A stretch of 64,000 bases of DNA from an uncultured Bacteroides sp. (GTDB lineage: Bacteria > Bacteroidota > Bacteroidia > Bacteroidales > GCA-2748055). This document shows, piece after piece, positions 30,473 through 51,853 of this stretch. The notes below the pieces were generated by a model. The model made no database searches. It saw nothing but the letters and a program-made list of their open reading frames with translations, and was not told where the DNA came from. Each line of letters starts with the position of its first letter. The stretch's first letter is position 1. The translations under genes and the position numbers were made by a program. The stretch is taken from assembly GCA_964458155.1 (NCBI GenBank), contig CAYWGP010000171.1, positions 11,073-75,072 of the forward strand. The letters are read 5' to 3'.

Positions 30473-30955
30473 TTAATCTGTGAAATCAATTTTACGATGC
30501 GTTCCGTCGCAGTAGGGCATGTTCCGGGATTCCCCACACCGGCAAAAGGAAGTCATCGTTGCAGGCCTGAGCTTCTGGTCATCGCTCCCAATAATAGAGA
30601 ATTGTCCCTCTACCACAATGGGACCATCCCTCATAATGCGGATGCTTGTTGGTTTGTCTTTTCCTGAAAGGGATCTTGGAGTCTCTTCAACCGGGCTCAC
30701 TTGCCTTTGAACTTTTTGCTCCTCTTCAGTAAGGTCCTCATTATTCTTCCAGATCAGAGCCTGTGTGGGGCATTTGTTGACAACTTCGATGATTTTCCTG
30801 GAGGGAGCTCCATCCATATTCACCCAGGGTCTCCTTCCGGGATTAAAGACTTCGATCAGTTCCCTGAAACAGGTAGTGGCGTGGATACATTTGGAGGGTA
30901 TCCAGAATACGGTTATGTCGCCATTGGTGTATTGTCTGTTCCGTGGATCGTCCAT
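30473..30955 (-). CDS. Divergent 4Fe-4S mono-cluster domain fused to a CDGSH domain
   Basis: 160 aa. The N-terminal CIHATTC...NKCP pattern resembles Fer4_19. The C-terminus has CRCGESRNMPYCDGTH. Confidence 0.75.
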   Translation of the reverse strand: MDDPRNRQYTNGDITVFWIPSKCIHATTCFRELIEVFNPGRRPWVNMDGAPSRKIIEVVNKCPTQALIWKNNEDLTEEEQKVQRQVSPVEETPRSLSGKDKPTSIRIMRDGPIVVEGQFSIIGSDDQKLRPATMTSFCRCGESRNMPYCDGTHRKIDFTD

Positions 30956-38520: not shown

Positions 38521-38550
38521 ATGTCGATGAAAATATCGATAAATGTCGAT
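38521..38550 (+). promoter_or_regulatory. Three direct AT(G/A)TCGAT repeats upstream of the hexahaem gene
   Basis: ATGTCGAT at 38521, ATATCGAT at 38533 and ATGTCGAT at 38543, with 10-12 nt phasing. Confidence 0.3.
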
Positions 38551-38565
38551 TAAAACAAGGATACT

Positions 38566-38579
38566 CACCTTGAAATCAG
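38566..38579 (+). promoter_or_regulatory. Half-conserved FNR-like box (CACCT-TGAA-ATCAG) upstream of the hexahaem gene
   Basis: The right half, AAATCAGT, is shared with the boxes at 40603 and 42229. A near-consensus -7 box, AATCTTTG (38599-38606), lies about 27 nt downstream. Confidence 0.3.
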
Positions 38580-38651
38580 TCTATATATATAGGGTGTGAA
38601 TCTTTGAACAATAAACCGGACATAGATACTTTAGCATCAAACCAATTAGCT

Positions 38652-39782
38652 ATGAAAATGAAACTATCTAAATTAATGCTACTGGGTGCTGTTGCCCTTC
38701 TTATTGGAGGTGCAGTTATCCTGAGTAGTTGTGAAGGTCCGGAAGGACCTGCGGGTGCCAACGGAACTAACGGTGTTGACGGTGTTGACGGTGTAGACGG
38801 TCAGGACGGTCAGGATGCCAACTCTACCTGTATTCTGTGTCACAGTGATGATCAGGTGATCGTTGCCAAGACCAGGCAGTATAATAATTCTGCCCACAAC
38901 ACCGGTCATACTTCCGGGTATACGAACAGGTCATTTGGTCCCCTGTATAATTGTGCAGGATGTCATACCAGCCAGGGATTCCTGGATGAACTGGTAGGTG
39001 CAAGTAATGTTCCCTATGCTGATATTACCCAGCCAAACTGCTACACCTGTCACAACATCCATGACACCTATACTACGGACGACTGGGCTCTGACAAACGG
39101 CGATCCCACTGTACCCTTTACCAATGCTGCTTATCAAACAGCCGCTGTTGATCTGGGTAACGGTAATCAGTGTACTCAATGTCACCAGTTCTCAGCCTAT
39201 TATCTTGTTATTGATTCGCTTTGGGCGGACTTTGACCTGGGAACGTCGACTGTGACTTTCCCAGCTGATAACAGTCTTAAGCGTGCTGGTGTGCATCATG
39301 CTCCCCAGTACAACATTTTTGCTGGAATGGACCTCTTTGAGTTTACAGGTACAACTGCCTATCCAACCAGCAACCACGTTATGGCTCAGGCTCCTGACGG
39401 ATGTGTTACCTGCCATATGAATGATGGATTTGGTGACCTCACCGGACACTCCATGTCGATGACTTATGATTTCCATGGTCCTGATAATTTGCACTGGTCC
39501 TCCTCTTGTACAGAATGTCATGATGGCGAGGATGAGCTGGATGGCAAAGTTGAAGATATTCAAACTGACGTCCAACTGCTGCTGGATGACCTGGAAACGC
39601 TCTTGCTTGCATCCGGAGTAATGACTGCTGATTATTACATTGCTCCTGGAGTATGGACCACTGACTTAACAGCAGCCACAGTAAATTTCAATGCCATTCG
39701 TGAAGATAAGAGTATTGGATTCCACAACGTGGACTATGTTGAGGCAGTTCTCATGAATACCATTGCAGCTATTACTCCTTAA
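38652..39782 (+). CDS. Hexahaem c-type cytochrome lipoprotein with a collagen-like Gly-X-Y stalk
   Basis: ATG at 38652 gives MKMKLSKLMLLGAVALLIGGAVILSSC, a lipobox. Nine G-X-Y triplets follow, then six CxxCH motifs (CILCH, CAGCH, CYTCH, CTQCH, CVTCH, CTECH). Confidence 0.9.
   Translation: MKMKLSKLMLLGAVALLIGGAVILSSCEGPEGPAGANGTNGVDGVDGVDGQDGQDANSTCILCHSDDQVIVAKTRQYNNSAHNTGHTSGYTNRSFGPLYNCAGCHTSQGFLDELVGASNVPYADITQPNCYTCHNIHDTYTTDDWALTNGDPTVPFTNAAYQTAAVDLGNGNQCTQCHQFSAYYLVIDSLWADFDLGTSTVTFPADNSLKRAGVHHAPQYNIFAGMDLFEFTGTTAYPTSNHVMAQAPDGCVTCHMNDGFGDLTGHSMSMTYDFHGPDNLHWSSSCTECHDGEDELDGKVEDIQTDVQLLLDDLETLLLASGVMTADYYIAPGVWTTDLTAATVNFNAIREDKSIGFHNVDYVEAVLMNTIAAITP
38736..38816 (+). repeat. Collagen-like triplet run with 9-bp tandem DNA repeats
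   Basis: Encodes GPE-GPA-GAN-GTN-GVD-GVD-GVD-GQD-GQD. The DNA reads ggtgttgac ggtgttgac ggtgtagac ggtcaggac ggtcaggat. Confidence 0.9.
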
Positions 39783-39811
39783 TCAGCGAAAGGCGTAATA
39801 ACAAAATAAAA

Positions 39812-39838
39812 AATGGGTGTCCATTCGGGCACCCATTT
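39812..39838. terminator. Bidirectional terminator between the hexahaem gene and the convergent FNR-like regulator
   Basis: AATGGGTG-tccattcggg-CACCCATT, flanked by A6 and T6. Confidence 0.75.
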
Positions 39839-39858
39839 TTTATTGCGGTAAATTTCTT

Positions 39859-40554
39859 TTAGCCTGTTTCGCTGATTTGTTTTATGCGCTTATAGTCGAT
39901 AACCTCAATGGATTTCCCATCCATCTTGATGAGGCCCTCGTCGTTAAACTCCTTCAGCATCCGGATGACCGTTTCGGGGCTCATGCCGGATAATTCGGCC
40001 AGCTCTTTCCTGGATAATGGCAGGTCAAATTCACAATTTTTAAAGATCCGGTCTGCCAGGCACAACAGGATGTCAGCAAGTCTGCCAAAAGCCTGCTTGT
40101 AAGTAAAGCAAAAGAACCTTCCGTATATCTGCAGACTGTTGGAGCTAAGAATATCAATAATTTCTTTTGTGAAATCAAAATTCTCCTTCATCAGGGTACG
40201 GAATGCTTTTACTTCTATTTGCCTGATCTCAGAGTCAATATAGGCCGTGGCAGAGTAGGGGAAATAGGCGTGCTCTTCCGAAACAGAAGAAAGCCCGAGA
40301 AAATTCCTGTCCGGCGTGATCCGCAGTATAAGGGAATTGCTTCCATTTTCCAGGAAAACCTTGGCTAGCCCCGATTCCATATATATTACATGAGATACAA
40401 AGCCGCCTTGTTTGCATATGACCTCTCCTTTCCTGTACTTAATTCTGACAGAGTTCTCATCCAGGAATTCCTTCTGCCCGGGAGTAAGATGCTCGAAGCA
40501 GCGGCACTCGTGGAAACTCAGGGTGCATGCAGAAAACTTTATTGACTCGTCCAT
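39859..40554 (-). CDS. Crp/Fnr-family transcriptional regulator with N-terminal Cys residues
   Basis: It has a cNMP-binding-like beta-roll and a C-terminal HTH (SRKELAELSGMSPETVIRMLKEF). ATG at 40554 is preferred because the GTG at 40575 overlaps a TATATTTG -7 box. The N-terminus reads MDESIKFSACTLSFHECRC. Confidence 0.85.
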   Translation of the reverse strand: MDESIKFSACTLSFHECRCFEHLTPGQKEFLDENSVRIKYRKGEVICKQGGFVSHVIYMESGLAKVFLENGSNSLILRITPDRNFLGLSSVSEEHAYFPYSATAYIDSEIRQIEVKAFRTLMKENFDFTKEIIDILSSNSLQIYGRFFCFTYKQAFGRLADILLCLADRIFKNCEFDLPLSRKELAELSGMSPETVIRMLKEFNDEGLIKMDGKSIEVIDYKRIKQISETG

Positions 40555-40574
40555 CCATCTATGCTTAGAGTTCA

Positions 40575-40582
40575 CAAATATA
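40575..40582 (-). promoter_or_regulatory. -7 promoter box (TATATTTG on the minus strand) for the FNR-like regulator
   Basis: Plus-strand CAAATATA lies 21 nt upstream of the ATG at 40554. Confidence 0.4.
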
Positions 40583-40602
40583 CAAAAGAATCATAAAAAA
40601 AA

Positions 40603-40644
40603 TTGATTTGTGTCAGCTTCTTACTCCATTTAAATCAGTTAAAA
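40603..40644. promoter_or_regulatory. Conserved 42-nt block with an FNR-like box, TTGAT-TTGT-GTCAG, copy 1
   Basis: 33 of 42 nt are identical to 42229-42270 within otherwise dissimilar intergenic DNA. The block starts exactly 183 nt before the ATG at 40786. Confidence 0.55.
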
Positions 40645-40785
40645 CTCGTCCATATTCCGGTGGAATTTCATACATAAATCCCCCTTTTATCAAAGATTAT
40701 GACGTTAGGCACACAATAATTTCGCTAGATTTACTTGCTGAGAACTAAATCATTACACAAGAGATATACCTTAGATTTTACAGGC

Positions 40786-42138
40786 ATGAGAAACTTAAAG
40801 AATGGTTCAGTACGGATTGTTTTCTTAATAATACTATTAAGCGCTGTGATTGGGTGCACTAATTACCAGATTCCAGGGAGTACTTCACCTGGACCAGAGG
40901 AAAACAATTGTGAGACGTGCCATACTGACTATGACCGCCTGGTAGAAGTATATACACCTGATACAGTGGCTCCTGTAAAGGGCTACGGTGTGGAGGCCCC
41001 TCAGTATGCGCCCTATGACCGGGTTTTTTTAGGAGGTAGCGGCTATGATTCTTATAAAGCATCGGGACACTACGCGGTAGGTTGTACAGGCTGTCATAAC
41101 GGCGATGGTGGTACCGGGGAGAAAGATCTTGCTCATACGGGGGATTTCATTTCCCATCCTTCCCAGTTCTATGAAGACAAATGCGCTGCCTGCCACCAGG
41201 ATATTACAAATGATTTTACAAGCAGTATTCATAATGGTACAGGTTTGAAACGTATGGTGGCTATGCGAAGCGGGCTAAGTGGGGCTTCCGAATTTGATCA
41301 GCTTCCACAGCATCAGATAGATGGCTACAATGATAATTGTGCAATATGTCACGGAGACTGTGGTAACTGTCATGTGGTCAGGCCACCCATGAGTGGTGGG
41401 GGATTGGCAGATGGTCATAATTTTAATAAAACACCCGATATGTCCAATGTCTGTCTGAGCTGTCATGCCGAAACTATAGGTCATGATTTCCAGGGTATCG
41501 ATCCGGCTACTGAGCCTGATATTCACCTGACTCTGAATGACTTTGATTGTCTTAGTTGTCATGACGGCCCTGAATTGCATGGGGATGGTCAGCCAGTGGA
41601 CCAGCGCTATGCTTACGCTGAGCTCCCCGAGTGTGAGAGTTGCCACACCGGAATAGAAACTGCAAATAACTTTCATACGGTACATATTGGCGATTTCAAT
41701 TGCCAGGTGTGCCATTCCCAGGACTTCAATAACTGTGGCAGCTGCCATATCGGAGGTGATGACGCCAGAATCCCTGCATATCTGGGTTTCAAGATCGCAG
41801 TCAATCCGCTACCCGATCTGATGGATTATTCATTTACTTTGGTCAGAAGAACAACGACTGCCCCGGATAACTGGGTAGAGTATGGTGTGGCTGAGTATGC
41901 AGACTTTGATGTGCATCCAACATATAACTATGCATCCCCCCATAACATTTTAAGGTTGACCGACCGGACTGATGTAGGAACAGAAAGTTGTAATTCTAAT
42001 TGCCACATCCGCAAGGAAGGGGAGACATACGTGAACAAAGAACTGTATCTGTTCCAGTCTGACCTGCTGGACTGGGAGATGGATGCAGATAGTGCTATCA
42101 TTGTTGATGGTAAGCTGCCCGACTACTGGATGAACTAA
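40786..42138 (+). CDS. Decahaem c-type cytochrome lipoprotein with an additional CX3CH motif, paralog 1
   Basis: ATG at 40786 gives MRNLKNGSVRIVFLIILLSAVIGC, a lipobox. There are ten CxxCH motifs plus C-terminal CNSNCH. Confidence 0.9.
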   Translation: MRNLKNGSVRIVFLIILLSAVIGCTNYQIPGSTSPGPEENNCETCHTDYDRLVEVYTPDTVAPVKGYGVEAPQYAPYDRVFLGGSGYDSYKASGHYAVGCTGCHNGDGGTGEKDLAHTGDFISHPSQFYEDKCAACHQDITNDFTSSIHNGTGLKRMVAMRSGLSGASEFDQLPQHQIDGYNDNCAICHGDCGNCHVVRPPMSGGGLADGHNFNKTPDMSNVCLSCHAETIGHDFQGIDPATEPDIHLTLNDFDCLSCHDGPELHGDGQPVDQRYAYAELPECESCHTGIETANNFHTVHIGDFNCQVCHSQDFNNCGSCHIGGDDARIPAYLGFKIAVNPLPDLMDYSFTLVRRTTTAPDNWVEYGVAEYADFDVHPTYNYASPHNILRLTDRTDVGTESCNSNCHIRKEGETYVNKELYLFQSDLLDWEMDADSAIIVDGKLPDYWMN

Positions 42139-42228
42139 AGTCAGTTTCAGGCTTCAAATTTGCTGACTGATTGATTTCTGTAATCTGGGGATCTTTCGGA
42201 CCCGGATATGATAAAATCATGAAATTTA

Positions 42229-42270
42229 CTGATTTGAATCAGCTTCAGACTGCACCTAAATCAGTTTAAA
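42229..42270 (+). promoter_or_regulatory. Conserved 42-nt block with a palindromic FNR-like box, CTGAT-TTGA-ATCAG, copy 2
   Basis: CTGAT/ATCAG are perfect inverted half-sites with N4 spacing. The block starts exactly 183 nt before the ATG at 42412. Confidence 0.55.
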
Positions 42271-42411
42271 TACAGTGGCTATTTCAATTGTTTTTCCTTT
42301 CACAAATGCCCTAAATACCCAATCTTTACAGCGGTTAATACCATGATTGTCTATTGATTATTTTGTGTGTTAACTACTTCATTTATAATGGATTATTAGA
42401 TTAGAAAAAAT

Positions 42412-43776
42412 ATGAGAAACACAAAGTTTTTTTCAGGGCTGGCCCTATTGTTGATGGTGTTTTTAATTGCCGGGATCGGGTGCACGAATTACCAGGTTCC
42501 GGGAAGCGGGAATAATGGAGAGATCTCTGCCAACTCCTGCGAGGGATGCCACACGGATTATGACCGTCTGGTTGCTGTGCATTCACCTGATACTGCTGCG
42601 CCGGTTGGAGGTTGTGGTGGAGAGGCTCCTCATTACGAGCCATACGACCGGGTTTATCTTGGTGGGACGGGATATGACTCTTTTAAAGCTTCCGGTCATT
42701 ACAGTGTTGGATGTACAGGATGCCATAATGGAAATGGGAAGACGGGTGATAAGAATGAGGCCCATTCGGGTGATTGGATTTCCTCACCCTCCCTTGATCA
42801 CCAGGAGAAATGTGTTACCTGTCATGAGAGTGTAAGCGATGGTTTTGTCACCAGTATTCACAATGGAACCGGACAGAAGCGAAAGGTAACCATGCGATCG
42901 GGATTGGCAGGACCGGAAGAATTTGATCAGCTGCCCGCACACCAGATAGATGGCTATAACCAGAAATGTTCGGTATGCCATGGTACCTGTGGAAATTGCC
43001 ACGTTGTACGCCCCGACATTGCCGGGGGAGGCTTATCCAATGGACATAATTTCAATAAGACCCCGGATTGGTACAATATATGTTCGGCCTGCCATGTATC
43101 CAGGGGTGCGCACGCATTCCTTGGTGTGAATCCGGAAACTGAACCTGACTTTCACAGAGATGAGTTAGATTTTACCTGCCTGACATGCCATGATGGTGTT
43201 GAGCTTCACGGTGACGGACAGCCGGTAGAGCAGCGTTATGCCTATACCGAGCTGCCCGAGTGTGAAGATTGTCATGAGGGACTGGAAAGGGAGAACAATT
43301 TTCACTCGATGCACTATGACGATTTTCAGTGTCAGATCTGCCACTCTCAGGATTATAACAACTGTGGCGAGTGCCACATTGCAGATGGCCATGCTGAATA
43401 TGGGCCATATATGGACTTTAAGATCGCCATGAACACAATTCCTGATATTAAGGAACATAAGTTAGCCCTGGTTCGCCGCACCCTTGCTTACCCCGATAAC
43501 TGGGTGGGCTTTGGAGAGGATCTTACATATGATAACTTTGAGGAGTTTCCAACCTATAATTATACCACTCCTCATAATATACTGGAGAGAACCACACGCA
43601 CAGATGTGGGTAGTGGAGCCTGTTATTCCAATTGCCACATACGCAATGAAGGTGGAACACTGATTAATTCAGAGTATTATCTCTGGAAAGACAGTCTGCT
43701 TACATGGGAACTGGAGGCCACTCAGGCTTATGCTGTGGACGGGCAATTGCCAGCCTCCTGGTTCGAAGAAAAATAG
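42412..43776 (+). CDS. Decahaem c-type cytochrome lipoprotein with an additional CX3CH motif, paralog 2
   Basis: Lipobox MVFLIAGIGC. All ten CxxCH motifs sit at the same relative spacing as in paralog 1. The C-terminus has CYSNCH. Confidence 0.9.
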   Translation: MRNTKFFSGLALLLMVFLIAGIGCTNYQVPGSGNNGEISANSCEGCHTDYDRLVAVHSPDTAAPVGGCGGEAPHYEPYDRVYLGGTGYDSFKASGHYSVGCTGCHNGNGKTGDKNEAHSGDWISSPSLDHQEKCVTCHESVSDGFVTSIHNGTGQKRKVTMRSGLAGPEEFDQLPAHQIDGYNQKCSVCHGTCGNCHVVRPDIAGGGLSNGHNFNKTPDWYNICSACHVSRGAHAFLGVNPETEPDFHRDELDFTCLTCHDGVELHGDGQPVEQRYAYTELPECEDCHEGLERENNFHSMHYDDFQCQICHSQDYNNCGECHIADGHAEYGPYMDFKIAMNTIPDIKEHKLALVRRTLAYPDNWVGFGEDLTYDNFEEFPTYNYTTPHNILERTTRTDVGSGACYSNCHIRNEGGTLINSEYYLWKDSLLTWELEATQAYAVDGQLPASWFEEK

Positions 43777-43825
43777 CAAACAATTCCAACAATAGAAAAT
43801 AATGTTTAACCAAATCACTATTAAA

Positions 43826-44815
43826 ATGAAGATTATATCGAAGATGAAATTTTGGATGTTAGCCATCCTGGTTGTTCCATTTTTCCTGGTTTCCTGCGAC
43901 AATGATGAGGATCCCGAAGAGGTAAATGAAGCTGAAGTACTCATTGAATACATGGAAAATCCGGGATCGCCGGCTGCCAACTATGGCAACTCAGGTCTTG
44001 CTATCAAGAGTGCCGAGGCTACTCATGCAGGAGTGGTTGCGGACAATGTATATGTCATTGACATTCGAGCTGCTGCTGATTACACTACCGGTCACATCGA
44101 AGGAGCAGTAAATCTTGCTGCTGCTGATGTGAGGGCTCATATTGATGCCACCGATCTAAGCGCTTTCAATGAAATTCACATTGTATGTTATACCGGTCAG
44201 TCTGCTTCCTGGCTGACCAGCCTCCTGCAGCTGGCAGGTTACAAAAACGTTTATTCCATGAAATGGGGAATGAGCGGATGGCACTCTGACTTTGACAAAT
44301 GGACCGCAAATACCAACAGCGACAAGGCCACCCTTTTTGTAGAAGCTTCGACTGATAAAGCTGCTGAAGGAGATCTTCCTGTCCTGACTACCGGTTATGA
44401 AGAAGGAGTAGATATCTTTGAAGCCCGTTATGATGCAGTACTGGCCGAAGGTTTTGGCCCAGCCGCAGTTTCTCAGGGTGATGTATATGCCAGCCTGGAC
44501 AATTATTACATCATTAATTACTGGCCTAATGCTGAGTACATTGATCCGGGTCACATCGATGGCTCCATGCAGTATACTCCCAACGAGGACCTTCAGTTGG
44601 GCACTTACTTAAAGACTCTGCCTACCGACAAAACTATCGCTGTGTATTGCTATACCGGGCAGAACAGTGCAAGAATTGCAGCTTATCTGAGGCTTATGGG
44701 ATACGATGCCAAGTCACTGAAGTTTGGGGCCAACAGTATGATCTGGTCTGAGATGACCAAATCCAAGTGGACTCCTGAAGCACCAATGCAATATGATTAT
44801 GTTGGAATGAAATAA
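43826..44815 (+). CDS. Tandem-rhodanese (sulfurtransferase-like) lipoprotein
   Basis: Lipobox VVPFFLVSC followed by an acidic DNDEDPEE tail. There are two rhodanese domains, each with a catalytic-loop Cys (VCYTGQSAS, YCYTGQNSA). Alternative starts are at 43802 and 43844. Confidence 0.85.
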   Translation: MKIISKMKFWMLAILVVPFFLVSCDNDEDPEEVNEAEVLIEYMENPGSPAANYGNSGLAIKSAEATHAGVVADNVYVIDIRAAADYTTGHIEGAVNLAAADVRAHIDATDLSAFNEIHIVCYTGQSASWLTSLLQLAGYKNVYSMKWGMSGWHSDFDKWTANTNSDKATLFVEASTDKAAEGDLPVLTTGYEEGVDIFEARYDAVLAEGFGPAAVSQGDVYASLDNYYIINYWPNAEYIDPGHIDGSMQYTPNEDLQLGTYLKTLPTDKTIAVYCYTGQNSARIAAYLRLMGYDAKSLKFGANSMIWSEMTKSKWTPEAPMQYDYVGMK

Positions 44816-44860
44816 GCAAAAGTACTTTGATGCTAGTTTTAACATAGTAAGCTACAACTA

Positions 44861-44894
44861 TAAGGGTGCTCCTGTTTGGGCACCCTTATTTGTT
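44861..44894 (+). terminator. Rho-independent terminator after the rhodanese gene
   Basis: TAAGGGTGC (44861-44869) pairs with GCACCCTTA (44880-44888), followed by TTTGTT. Confidence 0.7.
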
Positions 44895-45077
44895 CTTTAT
44901 ATATCCGGGTTCCCAATAATTTTAGCCTTGCACCGCTTCAGGATCGGAAAAACAAAGAATTTATAATGGTTATAGATTAGGCATTCCGGGCAATTTTGGC
45001 CCGGATATTGAATTATAATTGATAAGAAATAGATTATTTTAGCGAACAAGTCTGAAATTATCAAAAAACAATTAGCT

Positions 45078-45605
45078 ATGTTGACAAAACGAATATTCAC
45101 TTTAGCCTTGATGGTCTTCTTTGCAGGGAGTGCACTGATGGCCCAGAATTTCAAGTACATTGGAGCAGCAAAATGTAAAATGTGTCATGTGAAGCCCGCT
45201 ACAGGTGAACAGTACAATATTTGGTTAAAAGGTCCCCATGCAGGAGCCATGAAAACCCTGGCCGGTGATGAAGCAAAGAAAATTGCCACTGAAAAGGGAA
45301 TTGCTGATCCCACAACGGATGCAGCCTGTATCAGCTGTCACGCTACTGTTGCCGGTGTTGATGCCAAACTAATTGCCAGTGCAAAAATGGATGAGGGTGT
45401 TTCCTGCGAAACCTGCCACGGACCAGGAAGCATGTACAAGGGAGCTTCGGTTATGAAGAACCGTGATCTGGCCCTAACAAAAGGAATGATAATTCCTACG
45501 GAGGAGACATGTACAGCCTGTCACAATGAAAAGAGTCCTACCTTTAAGGGCTTTAATTACACTGAGATGTTAGCTAAGATTGCTCATCCCAATCCTGCAA
45601 AATAA
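45078..45605 (+). CDS. Tetrahaem c-type cytochrome (cytochrome c554-like small multihaem protein), secreted
   Basis: 175 aa with a Sec signal peptide (AGSALMAQN) and four CxxCH motifs (CKMCH, CISCH, CETCH, CTACH). Confidence 0.88.
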   Translation: MLTKRIFTLALMVFFAGSALMAQNFKYIGAAKCKMCHVKPATGEQYNIWLKGPHAGAMKTLAGDEAKKIATEKGIADPTTDAACISCHATVAGVDAKLIASAKMDEGVSCETCHGPGSMYKGASVMKNRDLALTKGMIIPTEETCTACHNEKSPTFKGFNYTEMLAKIAHPNPAK

Positions 45606-45642
45606 CAAGGAGTACAATATTTATCTAATTTTATTAATTTTG

Positions 45643-45676
45643 AAAGTCCTCTGGTAAGGTCACCAGGGGACTTTTA
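45643..45676 (+). terminator. Rho-independent terminator after the tetrahaem gene
   Basis: 12-bp stem, AAGTCCTCTGGT / ACCAGGGGACTT, with one G-U pair and a 6-nt loop, followed by TTTT. Confidence 0.7.
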
Positions 45677-45690
45677 CATATAAAAGGATT

Positions 45691-46389
45691 ATGAAAGGAA
45701 TAATAAAAATTTTGATTATCGCCATAGTAGCGATTGCCACAGCTTGCAGCAGCCCAAATGCTGATGGGACTGTAAGTGTAAAAGTGCAGGACGTGGAGCA
45801 GGTAGAAAACTATACTTATCTTCTGGTAAAGGGGAAAGGCCCCGCCTACTGGATTGCCGTCAGCTCTACTGAAATTGGGATCGGCGAAAAGATAACCTAC
45901 ACAGGTGGTATGCTTATGGAAAATTTCTACAGCAAGGAGCTGGACAAGACCTTTGAAAAGGTGATTTTCCTGGATGGTGTTGGAGGAAGTGCTCCGGCTG
46001 CCATGGAGGATATGCCTTCTATGCCTGTTACACCTGGCGTCTCACAGGGTTCAACTGTAAAAAGCGACAAGCTCGAAATTAATATTGAAGCTGAGGAGGG
46101 AATAGTCACCATTGGGGAATTGTACGCAAACCCCGGGGCCTATGAAGGAAAAACAATCCGTGTCAGGGGTGAAGTGGCGAAATACAATCCCGGTATCATG
46201 GAACGGAACTGGGTTCATCTCCAGGACGGGACCGAAGCAGAAGGCAAATATGATCTTACGATAACTTCTACTGAAGCCTTTCAGGTGGGCCAGGTGCTGA
46301 CCATTGAAGGTATTCTTGCTGCGAACAGAGACTTTGGTTATGGATACAGTTACGAGATCATTATGGAGGAAGCAACAATTGTAAAGTAG
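45691..46389 (+). CDS. Uncharacterised lipoprotein with two beta-rich halves (possibly OB-fold-like)
   Basis: 232 aa with lipobox AIATAC followed by SSPNADG. The second half reads GKTIRVRGEVAKYNPGIMERNWVHLQDGT. I recognise no cofactor motif. Confidence 0.7.
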   Translation: MKGIIKILIIAIVAIATACSSPNADGTVSVKVQDVEQVENYTYLLVKGKGPAYWIAVSSTEIGIGEKITYTGGMLMENFYSKELDKTFEKVIFLDGVGGSAPAAMEDMPSMPVTPGVSQGSTVKSDKLEINIEAEEGIVTIGELYANPGAYEGKTIRVRGEVAKYNPGIMERNWVHLQDGTEAEGKYDLTITSTEAFQVGQVLTIEGILAANRDFGYGYSYEIIMEEATIVK

Positions 46390-46482
46390 TCCGGGGAGGA
46401 AGCCTATAATTATTTGAAAAAGAGCCCGGCTTGCGAGCTCAACAGCGTTAATTTCAGCGACGAGCGGGAAGCCTAACACAGA

Positions 46483-46510
46483 AGAGGCCGTATCTTAGGA
46501 TACGGCCTCT
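46483..46510. terminator. Bidirectional terminator between convergent genes
   Basis: AGAGGCCGTATC-ttag-GATACGGCCTCT, a perfect 12-bp stem. Confidence 0.75.
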
Positions 46511-46533
46511 TACTTTTGTGCAATTATACCTTC

Positions 46534-49335
46534 TTAATGTACTCCTCCTGCAATGAGAGTGTAAACAATAGCTATGATCAGGAGGATCCCAATGATCAGT
46601 GCCGTAAATCCCAGGATTCTAATCATGCGCATGTAATCTTTGGAGAATTCTTTCGCATGGACTCGTTGATCCAGCTTTCCGGCCTCTTTTAATTCCTCGT
46701 ATTCCCGGGGACGTTCATGTTTGAAGTGTTCAAGGGGCATATATCCCGTAAATATTACGGTATCCATGGGGAAAGCTTCCGGCCTGAAATGTGTATTGAA
46801 GAAGTGGATGGTGAAAATAAATCCAACCGCCAGCAGCGCTTCATCACTGTGAATGATCTGGCTTATATTGATGAGCCATCCCGGGAAGAAACGGGTGAAG
46901 AATACCGGGAACCACAGTACAAGGCCGCTGAATCCGATTACTGCAACCCCCCAGAAGACAGCAATGTAGTCAAACTTCTCCCAGTAGGTCCATCTGCCAT
47001 AATAAGGCCTGGGACCTTTTCCAAGGAACCATTTTATAGTGGCAACGAAATCCCTTATATCCTGCTTGTTGAACCAGAGAGTGTCTTTGCCAAAAATAAA
47101 TTTGGTCATGGAAAGCCTTTTCCTCCTTTTCTCCCGAATCAGGTTAAAAATGTGGAAGGCGAAATAGCCAAAGGTGATTACAGCACCAATGCGATGTAGC
47201 ACGCCGGCAGTTTGGACACCTCCAAAGAACCTGGACAGAAACTTTGCCCAATCCATATGGGCAAACTTCAGCATCATTCCGGTCACGGCCAGAAGGATGA
47301 AACTAATAATTACGAAAATATGCGTGATCCGTTGGTTCTTGCTGAAGCGTTTATAGTAGAGATTCCCGGTTTCTTTGGGTCCTTCTTTCCTCTTTTTCCG
47401 TCTTTCTTTTACAGATCTGGGCAACCACATCAGGAGGTGAATTCCGAAGAAAGTAAATACACCCAGCAAAAGTGCGGTCATAAAGATATATGCATAATGC
47501 AATTTTGGATCATCTTTATGAGTGGCATGGCTCAAATAACCAGTAAAACGTTTGTTTGCTCCCTCATGGCAGCTTCCACAGGTTGTCACCAGGTTTTCTT
47601 CAGAGACCATGGATGCCGGGTTATTGGCCTTCAGGATATTGTGCGCACCATGACAATCGGAACACCTGGCGCTTTCATAGTAGCCCAGCTGATAGGCTTT
47701 GCCATGATAAGTTTGCATGTACGTTTTTGCCGTTTCCTCATGACAGGATCCACACTGGTGAGTAACTTCATTCATAAATTTATCCTGTCCAACAGTAGAA
47801 ATCTCATGTGCACTGTGACATTTAACGCAGGTGGGATACTCAGTACCCTGGGGGTCGGTTCTGTAGGCATGGTCGCTTTCCAGGTAGGTCTCATAGATTC
47901 CTTGATGACAGACCCCGCAGGTCGTCTGAACATTTGCAGGATGTACCGAAGAGCGTTCATCCTCCATTTTCAGCTCCATGTGGGAGGTGTGGCAGTCGGT
48001 ACATACAGCACTTACCGTTAATCCTTTGCCTGTGAGCCCCATGCCATGGACACTGGAGGAATAATCAGCCAAAGCATTGGTCTCAAGGATACCCTCCACC
48101 TCGGCTGCTAAGCCGTCCTCTCGGTGACATTCTCCGCACAATTGGGGGATTGCCATTCTGTAAACAGGGGAGGTGTCGTCGTATTTGGATTTAGTTGCAT
48201 GTGTCCCGTGACAATCGGTGCAGTAAGGGGCGTTTGCCTGATTATTATAATACGCCTGGCCATGCCCGCTTTCAAAGTACATACCAGAGATCTCGGCATG
48301 GCAGGATGAGCAGTCCACCGGCTGGTTGGTGGAGCAGGGGCGTTGCAGATGATCGGTAACCTGAGTATGACAATCGGTACACTGGATATTCTTGTGTACT
48401 GAATTGGGGAGCTCACGATTATCCCGGAATAAGGAAACAGTATCCCCCCCGACTATCTTATGCAAATTTTCATCCTGGTGGCACTTCATACATGCCTGGT
48501 CAGATATCCTGGCCTGAATCTTGGGTACGTCCACAATATGGGGCGGGTGACAGGAAGAACAGGCTGGAATGATACTTGGATTCTTCTCCCACAGCTCGCC
48601 CTTGATTACCTTTTTATGGGCTTCCTCAATTCTTGTGTGACATTTCATGCAGGTACCGGCAATCCTGTTTGTGGAAATGGAGGAATTGGGACTGGTATGA
48701 GGAAGCACCAGGTGGTTGCCGTGACAGTCGTTGCAGGTGGCAGTTACTACCAGTCCGGCTTCAAATAAGCCCTGGCCATGAATACCCTGGGTATAGTTCT
48801 CCACGATATTGTGTTCAGATACATCATATACCCTGGCCACAACCTCGCCCTCTTTGTGGCATCTTCCACAGAGGTAGGGAATATTCATCTTATAGGTGCG
48901 GGATGCTGTATTGCTGTTATGCAGGATATCGTGGTGACCGTGGCACTCCTTGCAGCTGGGAGCATTGGAATCATTACTTAAGAGAGCCTGTCCATGGACA
49001 CCTCTTACATTATTTTCCATCTCAACAGTATGGCAGCTTCCGCAATTGACCGGTTTCAGATCATCGGCATGGGGAAAACCTTCATCGGCAGCATCGGAAT
49101 GACAGGAGATACAGGTGTTGCTGTGGTGAACCGAGTGTGCAAAGATGGAGGTATCCACAAACATGGACACGGTCCTGCCATGGAGTAAACCGGTCAGTGA
49201 GCGGTCCTCATGGCACATCATACAATCCTCATCGGCCTGTGCAGTTACCAGGCCTGAAAACGAGCCTGCTACTATGAACAGAATGAACCAGAATGCCCTG
49301 GTTCTGGAGAGTGAAAACAAGTAATTATTGGTCAT
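46534..49335 (-). CDS. 19-haem c-type cytochrome fused to an integral-membrane cytochrome-b-like domain (CbcL-like quinol:cytochrome module)
   Basis: 933 aa with a signal peptide and 19 CxxCH motifs in aa 38-590, many of the paired form CxxCHGxH. From about aa 611 there are 5-6 TM helices with conserved His ([32 protein letters not shown]). Confidence 0.9.
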
Positions 49336-49745
49336 TTTTCAGGGTGTTCAGTTAGACGGGTAAAATAGTGATTATTAAATATTAAACACCTAATATCAAG
49401 GATATTGGGCGCAATTTATATCTAATCTGAATATAGATCAACTCCCTATTCGTGTTCTTCGTGGTAGCCGTTGATCATACTCATAAATAGAGTTCCAGAT
49501 TTGTCATCCAAAGTACAGGTATATTCTATTTTTTCCCATGTCAGCTTTTTTTTGTTTTCGAATACGCAAAAAGGAATGGAAGGCGATTACCAGCAGGGTT
49601 CCTCCAAATACAAGCAGACTGAGCCGGTTAAGCCACACGTTGTGATTTTCTTGAGCTTAAGAGTTTCATCCTGCTGGGCAGAGAGGGTGCTTGCAAGGGT
49701 CAGCAGGAGATTTATCAGCAAACCTGTTTGGGTGTTTCATTAATC

Positions 49746-50579
49746 TTAGAACCTGATTGTGATGTTAAAACCAAAGCGGAAATCACCATCCCAGGGATCA
49801 TTGCTGTTAAATGCAATACTCTGATTCCTCACAATGTAGTCGTAGGTGGATGCGAAAACCCTGAATGAGTGGGTGCTGGTTCCGATCTCCACACCAAAGG
49901 CCAGGTTTGGATATACATCTGTATCAGCATCAATCAGAGGCTGCTCATATTCAAGTATGATGGAAGAAAAGCCCAGTACCTGAAAACGCGCTCCTGCATT
50001 GATGGAAGCATTTATATTGTTATATCCTTCCGGCACCGCGTTGAACCATACAAAAGTAGGTAATACCTGTAAACTGATCTTTTCTCCGACCCTGCTGGAT
50101 ATAATCAGCTCATTGAGATAGGACATGCGGTAGGCAAACTTGTAATCCTCTTCAGGTCCGAAGTATTTCTGGTCACGTGCATCCAGGACTGCATTACCAT
50201 GGTAGGACAGGGAAATAGGCAAGCTACTGTTCTGGGTCAGAATGGCATATTTCCACTCCAGGTCCTGAAGCATGTCTTTCCGGGTGGTACCAAAACCCAC
50301 CATAAGCTTGTCGGTAATTCCGTAGCTGATTCCAATCCGGGTATTGGCACTTCCATAGATCCCGTACAGGTCGTTAATCTCTTCGATCTGGGAGAAACGG
50401 TGCTGGATTTCCAGCATGAATTGTCCCTTGTAAGGGCTTGCAGTGGTCTGGGCATCTACCAGAGTCAGTGTCTCAAAAGCCGGCATTACCGGAGTGGGCT
50501 CATCCTGGGCAAATAAAAGCCCTGAGCTTAAGAATGCAATAATACAGGTAGTGGCGCTTAGTTTTGTATATCGTCTCAT
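49746..50579 (-). CDS. Small outer-membrane beta-barrel protein (DUF5777-like as I recall the family)
   Basis: 277 aa with signal peptide LLFAQDE, alternating amphipathic strands, and C-terminal ...GFNITIRF ending in Phe. Confidence 0.7.
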   Translation of the reverse strand: MRRYTKLSATTCIIAFLSSGLLFAQDEPTPVMPAFETLTLVDAQTTASPYKGQFMLEIQHRFSQIEEINDLYGIYGSANTRIGISYGITDKLMVGFGTTRKDMLQDLEWKYAILTQNSSLPISLSYHGNAVLDARDQKYFGPEEDYKFAYRMSYLNELIISSRVGEKISLQVLPTFVWFNAVPEGYNNINASINAGARFQVLGFSSIILEYEQPLIDADTDVYPNLAFGVEIGTSTHSFRVFASTYDYIVRNQSIAFNSNDPWDGDFRFGFNITIRF

Positions 50580-50599
50580 AGCTATTGGTTATTTTAATA

Positions 50600-50959
50600 T
50601 CAGTTGTCCTCGGCTCCTTCGTCGATCCAGCCAAGGATTGTTAATAAGTCATCTTCAGTTACCCGGTCGGCATGGGAGCCGGTTAGAATTTCATACAGAT
50701 AGCTGGAGCAGGGAAAATCAACGTCCACATAATCACCATCTATCAATTCATCGTATGACCAGTCAGGACTCAGGTCGGGATTCTGACCTCCGCTGTGACA
50801 GCTTACGCAATTCTGATCAAATATGGGCTGAACATCGTTGGCATAACTTACGCCGGTTGGCAGATCGTCCGGACAGGGCGGTTCCGGGATCTCATATTGC
50901 GTACAGGATGACAGAATCATCAGCACAGATCCTGTCAGTATCAACATCATTCTTCTCAT
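50600..50959 (-). CDS. Monohaem cytochrome-c-like lipoprotein
   Basis: 119 aa with lipobox MILSSC and a single CVSCH in a VQPIFDQNCVSCHSGG context, similar to planctomycete-type cytochrome c domains. Confidence 0.75.
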   Translation of the reverse strand: MRRMMLILTGSVLMILSSCTQYEIPEPPCPDDLPTGVSYANDVQPIFDQNCVSCHSGGQNPDLSPDWSYDELIDGDYVDVDFPCSSYLYEILTGSHADRVTEDDLLTILGWIDEGAEDN

Positions 50960-51087
50960 ATCAATACATTTTATGTTTTCAGCTGAATTTTTGCTGTTGT
51001 TGAGTGCGAAAGATAAGTGTTCTGGCAGATTGTAAGAAAAAATATCAATGAAGATAGAATAAGTTTTTTATGGGGATAGATCATCTA

Positions 51088-51111
51088 ATTGACTGACATA
51101 TATCAGTCAAT
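51088..51111. promoter_or_regulatory. 24-bp near-perfect palindrome with core CTGAC-ATAT-ATCAG in a divergent promoter region
   Basis: In ATTGACTGACAT|ATATCAGTCAAT, 11 of 12 positions pair. It lies between the cytochrome operon (start 50959, minus strand) and the second FNR-like regulator (51158, plus strand). Confidence 0.6.
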
Positions 51112-51157
51112 AATTTTCTTTATATTGTATCGATCATGAAAAGGAGAAGAAAGGAGC

Positions 51158-51853
51158 ATGAAAACTGATAAAAATTGTATAGGATGCGATGAGTGTAACA
51201 GCAGGTCTCCCTTGTTTGCTTCGCTGACTTCTGAAGAGCTGAAATTGTTGAACGCAGATCGCTATTCCGTTCGCTTTCATAAAGGTGAAACCATAATCAA
51301 ACAGGGAACCCGGGCGGAGAATCTGGTCTCCCTGATCGAAGGGCTTGTAAAAATTTTTGTGGAAGGTGATTATAACAAGAACCTGGTGCTGGATTTTATC
51401 AAACCACCCAGGTTGGTGGGAGGTCCGGGAGCACAACTGGAAGGAAAGCACAGGTACACCATTGTGGCCATCAGAGAGACCCTGGTATGCTTTCTTGACC
51501 TGGGCAACTTTAAGAAAGTTCTGGCCTCCAATAGCACATTCTCCGAACAGTTTCTGATTCACTGCTCCAGGAATTATCTTTCCACCCTGGACCGTATGGT
51601 TGCTGTCACCCAGAAGCAGATGCATGGCAGAATGGCCGATGCCTTGATCTACCTTAGCAAGGAACTTTATGAAGATCAGGTCATTGGTGAAGAAATAAGC
51701 AGAATGGATATGGCAGAGTACACCTGTATGTCGAAAGACAGCGCGATTCGTGTGCTTAAAGAGTTTGAAAGGGATCATATAGTCAGCCTTCATGGGAAAC
51801 AGATCGAGGTCCTGGACTCCGAAAGGCTCCATGAAATAGCTGACAAAGGTTAA
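51158..51853 (+). CDS. Crp/Fnr-family transcriptional regulator with an N-terminal CxxCxxC cluster (FNR-like)
   Basis: 231 aa. It starts MKTDKNCIGCDECNS, followed by a cNMP-binding-like fold and an HTH (SRMDMAEYTCMSKDSAIRVLKEF). Confidence 0.88.
   Translation: MKTDKNCIGCDECNSRSPLFASLTSEELKLLNADRYSVRFHKGETIIKQGTRAENLVSLIEGLVKIFVEGDYNKNLVLDFIKPPRLVGGPGAQLEGKHRYTIVAIRETLVCFLDLGNFKKVLASNSTFSEQFLIHCSRNYLSTLDRMVAVTQKQMHGRMADALIYLSKELYEDQVIGEEISRMDMAEYTCMSKDSAIRVLKEFERDHIVSLHGKQIEVLDSERLHEIADKG

Follow-up and report, generated by a model that had tools for sequence, protein, structure and literature searches.

A multihaem cytochrome family with a selenocysteine/cysteine-exchangeable site and a rhodanese partner, in a cytochrome island of an uncultured Bacteroides sp.

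The window studied here is a 64,000-nucleotide stretch of DNA from an uncultured Bacteroides sp. (contig CAYWGP010000171.1, forward-strand positions 11,073 to 75,072) that holds a 13-kb island of nine structural genes, which we call g1 to g9, and two regulator genes, reg1 and reg2. Our analysis makes it quite likely that one of the encoded lipoproteins, the multihaem cytochrome g3, is a redox enzyme that acts on a sulfur or selenium compound together with g4, a tandem-rhodanese lipoprotein encoded next to it. Two findings lead us to this view: a cysteine that is exchangeable for selenocysteine (Sec) in the family of 10-haem cytochromes to which g3 and its paralogue g2 belong, and the pairing of these cytochromes with rhodaneses across phyla. 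That the reaction is specifically the reduction of polysulfide or elemental sulfur (S0) is a more tentative proposal, in which our confidence falls somewhat short of even.

The sole non-haem cysteine conserved in the 10-haem family is Cys68 of g3 (TGT, 42613-42615), which lies between haems 1 and 2 in the motif G-G-C-G-G-[ED]-A-P and is kept in 111 of 116 aligned members; the five exceptions carry Tyr and make up the clade of g2-like paralogues. Many distant homologues are predicted to start right after this position. On two contigs such a "truncated" gene is preceded by an open reading frame (ORF) for 90-99 amino acids in the same frame, with only a TGA between the two (...G-V-G-TGA-G-G-E-V-A-P-L-E-P-W-E-K-V). 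BLASTP of g3 against the read-through product gave an E value of 3e-50 across the stop, and the gapless register puts the TGA on Cys68, with a conserved Glu-Pro at +8/+9 in both proteins.

A scan for Sec covered 80 homologous loci, mostly from Anaerolineae with a few from Actinomycetota, which we count together as Chloroflexota homologues. An in-frame TGA occupies the Cys68 position in 76 of the 80, and in 74 of these 76 the upstream same-frame ORF contains the CxxCH of haem 1; the upstream ORFs of loci L141 and L143 have lipoprotein-type signal peptides. One locus, L182, has TGG (Trp) at the site. On the 3' side of the TGA an 11-nucleotide spacer leads to an invariant 6-bp hairpin, GGCUCC-GUU-GGAGCC, whose synonymous positions are frozen while neighbouring codons vary and whose lone divergent sequence has a compensatory GC-to-CG change. 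This order of TGA, spacer and hairpin is, to judge from the nucleotide sequences, the arrangement of a bacterial Sec insertion sequence (SECIS), and the hairpin spacing and G/U loop resemble those of the Escherichia coli fdhF SECIS. The Chloroflexota homologues are thus predicted selenoproteins, of which the window protein would be the Cys form. Positions at which Sec and Cys are exchangeable in selenoproteins are redox-catalytic residues, and for this reason we regard the 10-haem family as an enzyme rather than a passive wire. The sequence-only reading of the window that preceded our work had found no catalytic reductase in the island, a view that the Sec/Cys site of these proteins and the TGA with its SECIS-like hairpin overturn. 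Gene callers split the Sec-type genes (L141:3692-5110, L143:3710-5098, L144-L223) at the TGA into ORFs for 90-99 and 365-369 amino acids, and as a result public protein sets hold only N-terminally truncated Sec forms.

The tandem rhodanese that had been recognised in g4, the partner of the cytochrome, was borne out by Pfam, which finds two domains, and its best NCBIfam matches are GlpE and PspE. Both active-site loops are intact (CYTGQSA, 44186-44206; CYTGQNS, 44648-44668), and both catalytic cysteines and six-residue loops are kept in every orthologue that covers them. To examine gene linkage we used a g2 scan of one genome per species, which returned 146 relatives; in the best 80 of these, metagenome-assembled genomes (MAGs) of Bacteroidales/Marinilabiliales type, the rhodanese gene lies immediately downstream of the 10-haem gene at 72-75 loci. 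In Chloroflexota a rhodanese lipoprotein gene adjoins the Sec cytochrome gene in 44 of 46 loci with full flanks, and in 38 it is immediately downstream. In two homologues, P0155 and P0195, cytochrome and tandem rhodanese are fused into one chain, the C-terminal parts of which match 3-mercaptopyruvate sulfurtransferase (E 1e-38) and ExtH (E 2e-13). Adjacency across phyla, together with these fusions, argues that the family is a catalytic enzyme for a sulfur or selenium substrate and not a mineral-facing wire.

The family is large and, in Pfam and NCBIfam, is not covered by family-level models; we found neither a solved structure nor a published description of it in the literature searched. A profile search of 1.84 billion representatives returned 590 clusters at E<=1e-3, so that the family comprises at least 590 clusters at 50% identity, spread over Bacteroidota, Ignavibacteriota, Chloroflexota and some Actinomycetota. 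The 788 close homologues are annotated as "hypothetical" or, by the Joint Genome Institute (JGI), as "thiosulfate/3-mercaptopyruvate sulfurtransferase". The JGI label stands on multihaem homologues such as P0005, P0023, P0291, P0378 and others, and was probably transferred from the cytochrome-rhodanese fusion proteins. In 126 family members of 29-85% identity the ten CxxCH motifs and a CX3CH motif are invariant, and the haem motifs are therefore not a product of chance. The CX3CH motifs that had been reported for two island proteins are CNSNCH in g2 (41989-42006) and CYSNCH in g3 (43621-43638); because distant homologues have a canonical CxxCH at this position, we take it to be a real eleventh haem site. 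Non-motif histidines are universal at nine positions for these 11 haem sites, which may leave room for a non-His ligand; His74 was considered as a universal haem ligand and rejected, as it is Leu in the Sec forms.

An AlphaFold2 model of g3, built on a 126-sequence alignment that included Ignavibacteriales, Melioribacteraceae, Kapabacteria and members of 29-50% identity, reached a mean predicted local distance difference test score (pLDDT) of 89.2 and a predicted template modelling score of 0.83, with the loop block 61-70 at 71. It consists of a haem domain made of alpha-helices and, C-terminal to it, a beta-rich domain that bears haem 11. A model of g2 from 37 close homologues was unusable (pLDDT 46). 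In g2, Tyr (40984-40986) replaces the catalytic Cys and Gln replaces His74; as a Cys-less paralogue, g2 is probably a pure electron-transfer or structural partner. The two-copy arrangement of g2 and g3 recurs in an 80%-identical relative (L081). By comparison with homologues, g2 probably starts at the ATG at 40786 (450 amino acids) and not at the TTG at 40735.

The same module could act on another substrate, either thiosulfate or tetrathionate in the manner of Otr or selenite or tellurite as described for Geobacter ExtI and ExtH, in respiration or in detoxification; we find this rather doubtful. The best solved relative of the family is indeed the Shewanella octahaem tetrathionate reductase Otr: the family profile matched Otr (1sp3) in the PDB with E 7e-8, followed by MtrF (1.6e-4) and NrfA (about 3e-3). 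Yet the match spans only 134 of 452 profile positions, and hidden Markov model (HMM) scores lie far below curated cut-offs, with g2 and g3 reaching 19.9 and 17.3 bits against a cut-off of 375 in the Otr model (TIGR04315) and having 11 haem sites, not eight. Rhodaneses classically use thiosulfate, the best matches of g4 being GlpE and PspE, and distant family members weakly match the NCBIfam models ExtM, ExtN and ExtH ("selenite/tellurite reduction operon"). ExtI is required for selenite and tellurite reduction (PMC5877670). MccSep, described in 2026, is a Sec-containing pentahaem polysulfide reductase with a His/Cys-ligated haem that is essential for S0 respiration; it reduces selenite too, but this enzyme, the only Sec multihaem reductase to be characterised, does not act on thiosulfate or tetrathionate (PMC13510729). 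Selenite is moreover too scarce for so widespread an FNR-controlled module in fermenters.

The genes of the island and the elements between them, with domains assigned from Pfam and NCBIfam and motifs tallied on the translations of an ORF map, are as follows.

38652..39782, + strand: g1, hexahaem lipoprotein, 6 CxxCH
39805..39844: 18-nt inverted repeat, a probable bidirectional terminator for the convergent g1 and reg1 on either side
39859..40575, - strand: reg1, Crp/FNR-family regulator (Pfam), divergent from the 10-haem operon
40603..40616: FNR/CRP-type box TTGATTTGTGTCAG in the divergent reg1/g2 promoter region
40735..42138, + strand: g2, lipoprotein with 10 CxxCH and a CX3CH, paralogue without the catalytic Cys
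42229..42242: second FNR/CRP-type box CTGATTTGAATCAG, upstream of g3
42412..43776, + strand: g3, 11-haem lipoprotein with 10 CxxCH and CYSNCH, proposed terminal enzyme
43802..44815, + strand: g4, tandem-rhodanese lipoprotein, two Pfam rhodanese domains
44860..44889, + strand: terminator-like hairpin at the end of the g2-g3-g4 operon
45078..45605, + strand: g5, tetrahaem cytochrome c554-like protein with a signal peptidase I (SPase I) signal peptide, 4 CxxCH
45691..46389, + strand: g6, 232-residue lipoprotein with no recognisable domain
46482..46511: hairpin with a 13-bp stem between the convergent g6 and g7
46534..49335, - strand: g7, 19 c-haems and an FdnI/HydC-type cytochrome b domain
49336..49745, - strand: remnants of a CbcA-like and a CbcB-like gene in the 410-bp gap between g7 and g8
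49746..50579, - strand: g8, beta-barrel of the outer membrane, DUF5777 (Pfam E 1e-60), with an SPase I signal peptide
50600..50959, - strand: g9, monohaem c-type lipoprotein, 1 CxxCH
51093..51106: third FNR/CRP-type box CTGACATATATCAG, inside the palindrome 51088-51111 between g9 and reg2
51158..51853, + strand: reg2, Crp/FNR-family regulator (Pfam) with an N-terminal C-x2-C-x2-C

Much of the anatomy in the sequence-only reading was recovered. The ORF map again gave nine structural genes, a re-count returned the same 50 CxxCH motifs (6+10+10+4+19+1 in g1, g2, g3, g5, g7 and g9), and the N-termini confirmed six lipoboxes, in g1, g2, g3, g4, g6 and g9, the SPase I-type signals being those of g5, g7 and g8. 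Searches with Pfam and NCBIfam detected no molybdenum, Fe-S or sirohaem domain in the island, no island protein contains CxxCK, and the sole barrel, the 277-residue DUF5777 protein g8 that had been noted as a small outer-membrane (OM) beta-barrel, leaves the island without an MtrB-sized porin, as had been stated. The three hairpins suggest the transcription units g1, reg1, g2-g3-g4, g5-g6, g9-g8-(remnants)-g7 and reg2.

The flanks are housekeeping genes; on one side they encode an acyl-CoA carboxylase and a 5'-nucleotidase lipoprotein, on the other a beta-lactamase-family protein and a major facilitator superfamily transporter. A mobile island was considered and rejected, as the flanking genes are syntenic in relatives and GC content differs little. 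In L081 (L081:7517-8704) an insertion sequence with a DDE_Tnp_1 transposase lies between the g1 region and reg1, beside a 47-residue duplicate of the g1 C-terminus. The 5'-nucleotidase upstream of the island (36679-38400) is a UshA-family lipoprotein, and the best NCBIfam match of g5 is the C-terminal c554-like domain of a "UshA-like (seleno)protein"; together these suggest that both gene types are fused in other lineages. Elsewhere in the window are a small protein with a divergent 4Fe-4S mono-cluster domain (Fer4_19) and a CDGSH iron-sulfur domain (30473-30955), and a GSDH glucose/sorbosone dehydrogenase with an N-terminal monohaem cytochrome c (55330-56766), 3.5 kb from the island and not co-conserved with it. 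The host had been taken for a Bacteroidota anaerobe, and a peptidase sorted by the T9SS (type IX secretion system) and an [FeFe] hydrogenase in the window agree with this. The large subunit of the hydrogenase (662-2449), which has a NuoG-like N-terminus, marks the host as a fermentative anaerobe.

The island had also been read as one unit, and here we found two separately conserved modules instead. By tblastn mapping and all-against-all clustering of ORFs in the 80 Bacteroidales loci, module A is a triad of reg1 (divergent, 70 of 80), the 10-haem gene and the rhodanese gene; no further gene is conserved around it, and the rest of the island occurs only in about 10 close relatives. For module B a query with the single protein g8 gave only close relatives, and an alignment of DUF5777 proteins was therefore used, which yielded 57 loci at 30-91% identity. 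The core of this module is the DUF5777 gene with g9 (55 loci), a 7-haem cytochrome c (48), a 207-residue cytochrome b (45) and a divergent reg2 (42); g7 (25), g5 (26), g6 (19) and a g1-like gene (19) are optional, g6 co-occurring with g5 in its 19 loci. Modules A and B are adjacent in the clade of the window and again in a distant genome (L020/L130), and lie on different contigs in several MAGs (L060/L111, L073/L140, L053/L128). Between the two modules in L020, a distant Bacteroidales genome, is a gene for a 1037-residue ResB/CcsA fusion (L020:5666-8779; ccsBA, system II maturation).

Module B would supply the electrons. The fusion of 19 haems to a cytochrome b-like domain, which had been proposed as a link to the quinol pool, is g7, in which a signal peptide and 19 CxxCH in repeated units precede a Ni_hydr_CYTB/FdnI-like domain (Ni_hydr_CYTB 34.5 bits against a cut-off of 30.1; FdnI E 4.5e-9) with about six transmembrane (TM) segments, whose histidines recur in the L020 orthologue. 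We take g7 to be a CbcL-like quinol:cytochrome oxidoreductase, given its resemblance in architecture to Geobacter CbcL, and relatives add a CbcBA-like pair; g7 is probably the quinol entry point, and its haem chain could bridge much of the periplasm. A candidate periplasmic carrier is g5 (Pfam Cytochrome_C554 E 2.7e-18; NCBIfam CycA E 1.5e-15). No match to g6 was found in Pfam, NCBIfam or the PDB, and single-sequence PDB searches with g2, g6, g7 and g8 gave nothing or matches at noise level.

The sequence profile of the g1 family places g1 in the NrfA/ONR/OcwA superfamily, as a member without CxxCK: its PDB matches were ONR (8rv0, E 1.4e-11, nearly full length), OcwA (6i5b, 1e-9) and the multihaem cytochrome 6qvm (1.8e-8), and more weakly NrfA (6e-8), HAO (1e-7) and MtrC (8e-6). 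With only these scores, and that for Otr in the 10-haem family, homology to known soluble-substrate reductases is remote in both cases; a close one, on whose absence the sequence-only reading had staked its proposal beforehand, was not found. Right after its lipid-anchor Cys g1 has a collagen-like (G-X-Y)9 segment (38730-38825; Pfam Collagen), and G-X-Y repeats of 9-14 triplets follow the anchor Cys in 10 of 11 g1 homologues (for example L002:2809-3864 and L020:3628-4749). Such repeats may build a trimeric stalk and so keep the hexahaem domain some 8 nm off the membrane.

Between g8 and g7 the window has lost two genes that are intact in nearly all relatives retrieved, including strains with a 99%-identical DUF5777 protein. 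By tblastn and blastn against L002, L082 and L224, what is left are the last 33 codons of a cbcA-like gene (C-terminus 49647-49549) and the last 25 codons of a cbcB-like gene (C-terminus 49523-49449), and when the DNA is aligned with that of L082 and L224, two internal deletions stand out, both clean and about 775 and 520 bp long. The contig of a near-identical strain, L224, matches at 99.5% as far as 49651, where identity falls to 81% for the remnant and to 92% for the part towards g7, and the region 49336-49745 reflects either real pseudogenisation with recombination or a chimeric assembly. In L002 the CbcB-like protein matches NCBIfam NF011582, "thiosulfate reductase cytochrome B subunit" (E 1.5e-49), and the CbcA-like protein has 7 CxxCH and a His in its C-terminal TM helix (...LVILFHTLL). 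Among the relatives retrieved, L136 is the sole other lineage without cbcAB, and there g7 directly follows g8, which fits an ability of g7 to substitute for CbcBA.

The DUF5777 barrel is unusually well conserved, with 75-94% identity across relatives, and has about 12 amphipathic strands, counted by eye; DUF5777 gave no sequence match in the PDB, and a literature search returned nothing relevant. Wherever g9 occurs it lies directly upstream of the DUF5777 gene. That g8 and g9 provide the step across the OM is a possibility that we consider doubtful.

OM or surface lipoproteins, which had been anticipated, are indeed likely. In Bacteroidota a lipoprotein export signal (LES) of the form K-(D/E)2 suffices for surface display (PMC5080379). 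The N-terminus of g4 after its lipobox Cys is acidic and LES-like (C-DNDEDPEE), and 67 of 73 rhodanese orthologues have at least two D/E at +2 to +6, with the consensus C-x-K-(D/E)-(D/E); the rhodanese is thus predicted to be surface-exposed. LES-like N-termini are also found in 70 of 114 members of the 10-haem family. A different motif, C-[TS]-x-Y-x-I-P, is common to g9 and the 10-haem proteins of the DUF5777-linked clade, where it replaces the acidic LES of the family. This motif could be a sorting or docking signal, but the association is confounded by phylogeny.

The island could instead be an extracellular electron-transfer (EET) system for insoluble acceptors such as Fe(III) or Mn(IV) oxides, humics, electrodes or partner cells, with the haem lipoproteins as its endpoint at the surface and the rhodanese as no more than an accessory. 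This was the thrust of the sequence-only reading, of which the anatomy, the quinol link, the probable OM or surface lipoproteins and the absence of an MtrB-sized porin stood, whereas the haem proteins as mere endpoint and the single unit did not; as an account of the island we now hold it to be unlikely. The g7 and CbcBA-like genes do resemble Geobacter EET quinol oxidoreductases, the g1 family is related to surface terminal reductases (OcwA and 6qvm, and more weakly MtrC), both rhodanese and cytochromes carry LES-like signals, and Geobacter ExtHIJKL alone supports partial Fe/Mn oxide reduction (PMC6148476). An 8-haem cytochrome with a T9SS sorting domain (Por_Secre_tail) is encoded upstream of the g1-like gene in L002 (L002:844-2409), but it is present at this one locus only, and T9SS-exported cytochromes were rejected as a general feature. 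A Sec/Cys-exchangeable residue with a SECIS marks a catalytic site and is no feature of wire cytochromes, the obligate partnership with an active tandem rhodanese, kept across phyla and in places as a fusion, speaks for sulfur or selenium chemistry, the triad usually stands without conduit genes, and a large porin is absent from the island.

The two modules could also be unrelated neighbours, module A being a self-contained sulfur enzyme with other carriers and module B serving some different end, such as a low-potential overflow route that oxidises quinol. In about 60 loci the triad stands without module B, about 38 of 57 DUF5777 operons have no triad within 7 kb, and the modules lie on different contigs in several MAGs. 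We nevertheless regard mere neighbourhood as improbable: the adjacency recurs at a DUF5777 identity of only 38% (L020/L130), the promoter regions of both modules have the same type of box, module A is without a quinol link of its own, and the 10-haem proteins of the window clade share the C-T-x-Y-x-I-P N-terminus with g9.

Both regulators were confirmed to be FNR-type (cNMP_binding and HTH_Crp_2 domains), with the Crp/FNR fold in Pfam and NCBIfam, a Cys cluster and a palindromic box, Fe-S binding being putative; they do not bracket the island, as had been thought, since reg1 sits inside it between g1 and g2. The four cysteines of reg1 (C17, C24, C26 and C54) are kept in 63-69 of 70 sequences, and in 46 of 70 orthologous reg1/cytochrome intergenic regions a YTGAY-N4-RTCAR palindrome occupies a fixed position. 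This palindrome has 4 exact matches in the window against 1.6 expected, 3 of them in island promoter regions (40603, 42229 and 51093). The canonical TTGAT-N4-ATCAA box with 2 mismatches was not clearly enriched (71 matches against 56±7 expected), so only the phylogenetically derived form is informative; a scan for sigma70 promoters was discarded as not meaningful for Bacteroidota. With the same type of box at both, the two modules appear to answer the same FNR-type input, presumably anoxia. That the pair instead works oxidatively, on sulfide, thiosulfate or S0 or by taking up extracellular electrons, and feeds the quinone pool via g7 is very unlikely, for although the His/Cys-type multihaem enzymes TsdA and SoxAX, cited as mechanistic relatives, run in this direction (PMC13510729), bc-type modules are reversible in principle and many source MAGs come from sulfidic habitats, going by record titles, FNR-type regulators with Cys clusters and FNR boxes imply anoxic induction, the host ferments, has an [FeFe] hydrogenase and shows no oxidase or denitrification genes in the window, and the characterised CbcL and CbcBA are quinol oxidases (bioRxiv 10.1101/2021.04.15.440034).

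How the parts could work together can be outlined as a chain. We envision that menaquinol is oxidised by g7, and in relatives by CbcBA as well, and that electrons would be relayed via periplasmic g5, via g9 and g8 at the OM and via the collagen-stalked g1 to a terminal step by g3 (with g2) and g4 at the OM or the cell surface. The rhodanese would capture sulfane sulfur from S0-derived polysulfide as a persulfide and pass it to the cytochrome, and g3 would then reduce the S-S bond via Cys68 and its haem chain, with release of sulfide; thiosulfate, tetrathionate and selenite are other possible substrates of g3. The host would benefit from such an electron sink because its [FeFe] hydrogenase marks it as a fermenter. 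In this scenario the island is an FNR-type, anaerobically induced electron-disposal or respiratory chain assembled from two conserved modules, and whether it is so is, in our judgment, evenly balanced.

Several observations weigh against this scenario. The choice of substrate draws solely on the rhodanese partner and on analogy, and the contribution of ExtHIJKL to Fe/Mn reduction means that a rhodanese in the cluster leaves metal reduction possible (PMC6148476). A Foldseek search of the PDB with the g3 model gave nothing significant (best NrfA 1qdb, E 3), so that no class could be assigned at the level of fold and what holds is the HMM-level link to Otr alone. With NF040886, the ExtKL model of NCBIfam, neither g2 and g3 (at E<=0.01) nor any of 44 diverse family members (at 1e-5) gave a match, and the Sec/Cys site lies between haems 1 and 2 here versus in a C-terminal Ig-like domain in MccSep. 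The 277-residue barrel is too small to sheathe a multihaem cytochrome in the manner of MtrB. The cytochromes of the window clade have C-T-N-Y-x-I-P instead of an acidic LES (g2 C41-TNYQIPG, g3 C24-TNYQVPG; the related N-terminus of g9 is C19-TQYEIPE), which makes the OM side of g2 and g3 uncertain. Finally, module B is no obligatory companion of module A, since electron-supply genes are absent from the vicinity of about 60 triad loci and most of the genomes with a triad yielded no locus of DUF5777.

We know of no enzyme assigned to the reduction of S0 or polysulfide by the abundant fermentative Bacteroidales, Ignavibacteria and Anaerolineae of sediments, digesters and sulfidic waters. If the 10-haem family is this missing reductase, gene surveys of the sulfur cycle overlook a major player, all the more as its members stand in public databases as "hypothetical" or wrongly as "sulfurtransferase" and the Sec forms are systematically split. 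The equivalence of Sec and Cys supplies a catalytic residue that is immediately testable. If the assignment is true, the family joins MccSep as a second and apparently independent example of a multihaem scaffold on which selenium or a thiol assists catalysis, and the operon of monohaem lipoprotein, DUF5777 barrel and cbcAB becomes a candidate for a Bacteroidota electron route to the OM without an MtrB-type porin. In its most far-reaching form, which we put forward as speculation and think improbable as a whole, the 11-haem Sec/Cys lipoprotein and its tandem rhodanese would be an unrecognised, phylum-spanning class of surface haem-only chalcogen reductase by which fermenters respire solid S0 or polysulfide, fed in Bacteroidales via a minimal conduit of g9-type monohaem protein and DUF5777 barrel that is co-encoded with a CbcBA-like pair, the C-T-x-Y-x-I-P N-termini docking at or threading through the barrel.

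No paper describing such an architecture was found in the literature searched, as the sequence-only reading had supposed, and searches for Bacteroidales multihaem EET lipoproteins or for rhodaneses with multihaem proteins in Ignavibacteria returned nothing relevant. The systems that come closest each share part of it. As in MtrCAB and Pcc, an OM barrel gene lies beside genes for c-type cytochrome lipoproteins (PMC8406198); unlike in those systems, there is neither a barrel of 20-26 strands (over 600 residues) nor an MtrA-like periplasmic decahaem protein running through the porin, the MtrC/MtrF domain model gives only weak matches (best E 1e-9), and those to the OmcA/MtrC and DmsE NCBIfam models lie far below cut-offs. 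By architecture only, g9 and g8 resemble a split Cyc2, which is a monohaem cytochrome c fused to a porin of roughly 16 strands (PMC8406198), whereas g9 and g8 are separate genes.

On the quinol side, CbcL unites in one protein a multihaem c domain in the periplasm and a b domain of HydC/FdnI type, and cbcBA homologues, proposed as a marker of EET in Bacteroidetes, occur in Prolixibacter, Marinilabiliales and Labilibaculum (bioRxiv 10.1101/2021.04.15.440034). Compared by architecture, g7 has the same fusion with 19 haems in place of the nine of CbcL. The pair in relatives of the window, a 207-residue, 4-TM cytochrome b of PhsC type and a 7-haem cytochrome c with a His-bearing C-terminal TM helix, likewise follows the published description of CbcBA. 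It differs from CbcBA in sharing an operon with a monohaem lipoprotein and a DUF5777 barrel, with only remnants in the window, and in the adjoining regulator: in 42 of 57 loci this is reg2, of Crp/FNR type, in place of the sigma54-dependent BccR.

Otr and the NrfA/ONR/HAO enzymes, remote homologues of the 10-haem and g1 families, are haem-only enzymes for small nitrogen and sulfur compounds. The match to Otr is partial, with 11 haems in place of eight and no significant Foldseek match, and the island lacks the CxxCK of NrfA. Wolinella, with Sud/PsrABC, and Aquifex, with SbdP, likewise have an extracytoplasmic rhodanese, which brings sulfane sulfur to a reductase of sulfur respiration. In those systems a molybdopterin enzyme takes the place that the multihaem cytochrome has here, and g4, unlike Sud and SbdP, is a tandem lipoprotein with two active sites and a surface-export signal.

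The nearest counterpart is the Geobacter extHIJKL cluster, which encodes the rhodanese lipoprotein ExtH, the porin ExtI and ExtKL, that is MccSep (PMC13510729; PMC6148476). The paper on MccSep is the only one we found in the literature searched that joins selenocysteine, a multihaem cytochrome and a rhodanese, and it mentions neither Chloroflexota nor Bacteroidota (PMC13510729). In both systems a rhodanese lipoprotein gene lies beside the gene of a multihaem cytochrome with a Sec/Cys-exchangeable residue, with an OM barrel nearby and a divergent regulator, and the link to reduction of S0 or polysulfide (and selenite), which for the island is a proposal, involves no molybdenum or Fe-S subunit. 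The proteins themselves differ: homology is undetectable and the NCBIfam ExtKL and ExtH models miss g2, g3 and g4, the g3 family has 11 haems versus five in MccSep, its members are lipoproteins, most of them bearing a signal for surface export, in contrast to the soluble tetramer that MccSep forms in the periplasm, and the window protein is a Cys form. The barrel is a DUF5777 protein of roughly 12 strands versus the 21 strands of ExtI, and the regulator is of FNR type in Bacteroidales versus LysR for Geobacter ext. By analogy, the 10-haem family would thus work like MccSep/ExtKL while falling outside its family. Haem-only Sec/Cys chalcogen reductases partnered by a rhodanese are a kind of enzyme known since 2026, of which the 10-haem family would represent an independent variant that is much larger, more widespread, located elsewhere in the cell and served by a new supply module.

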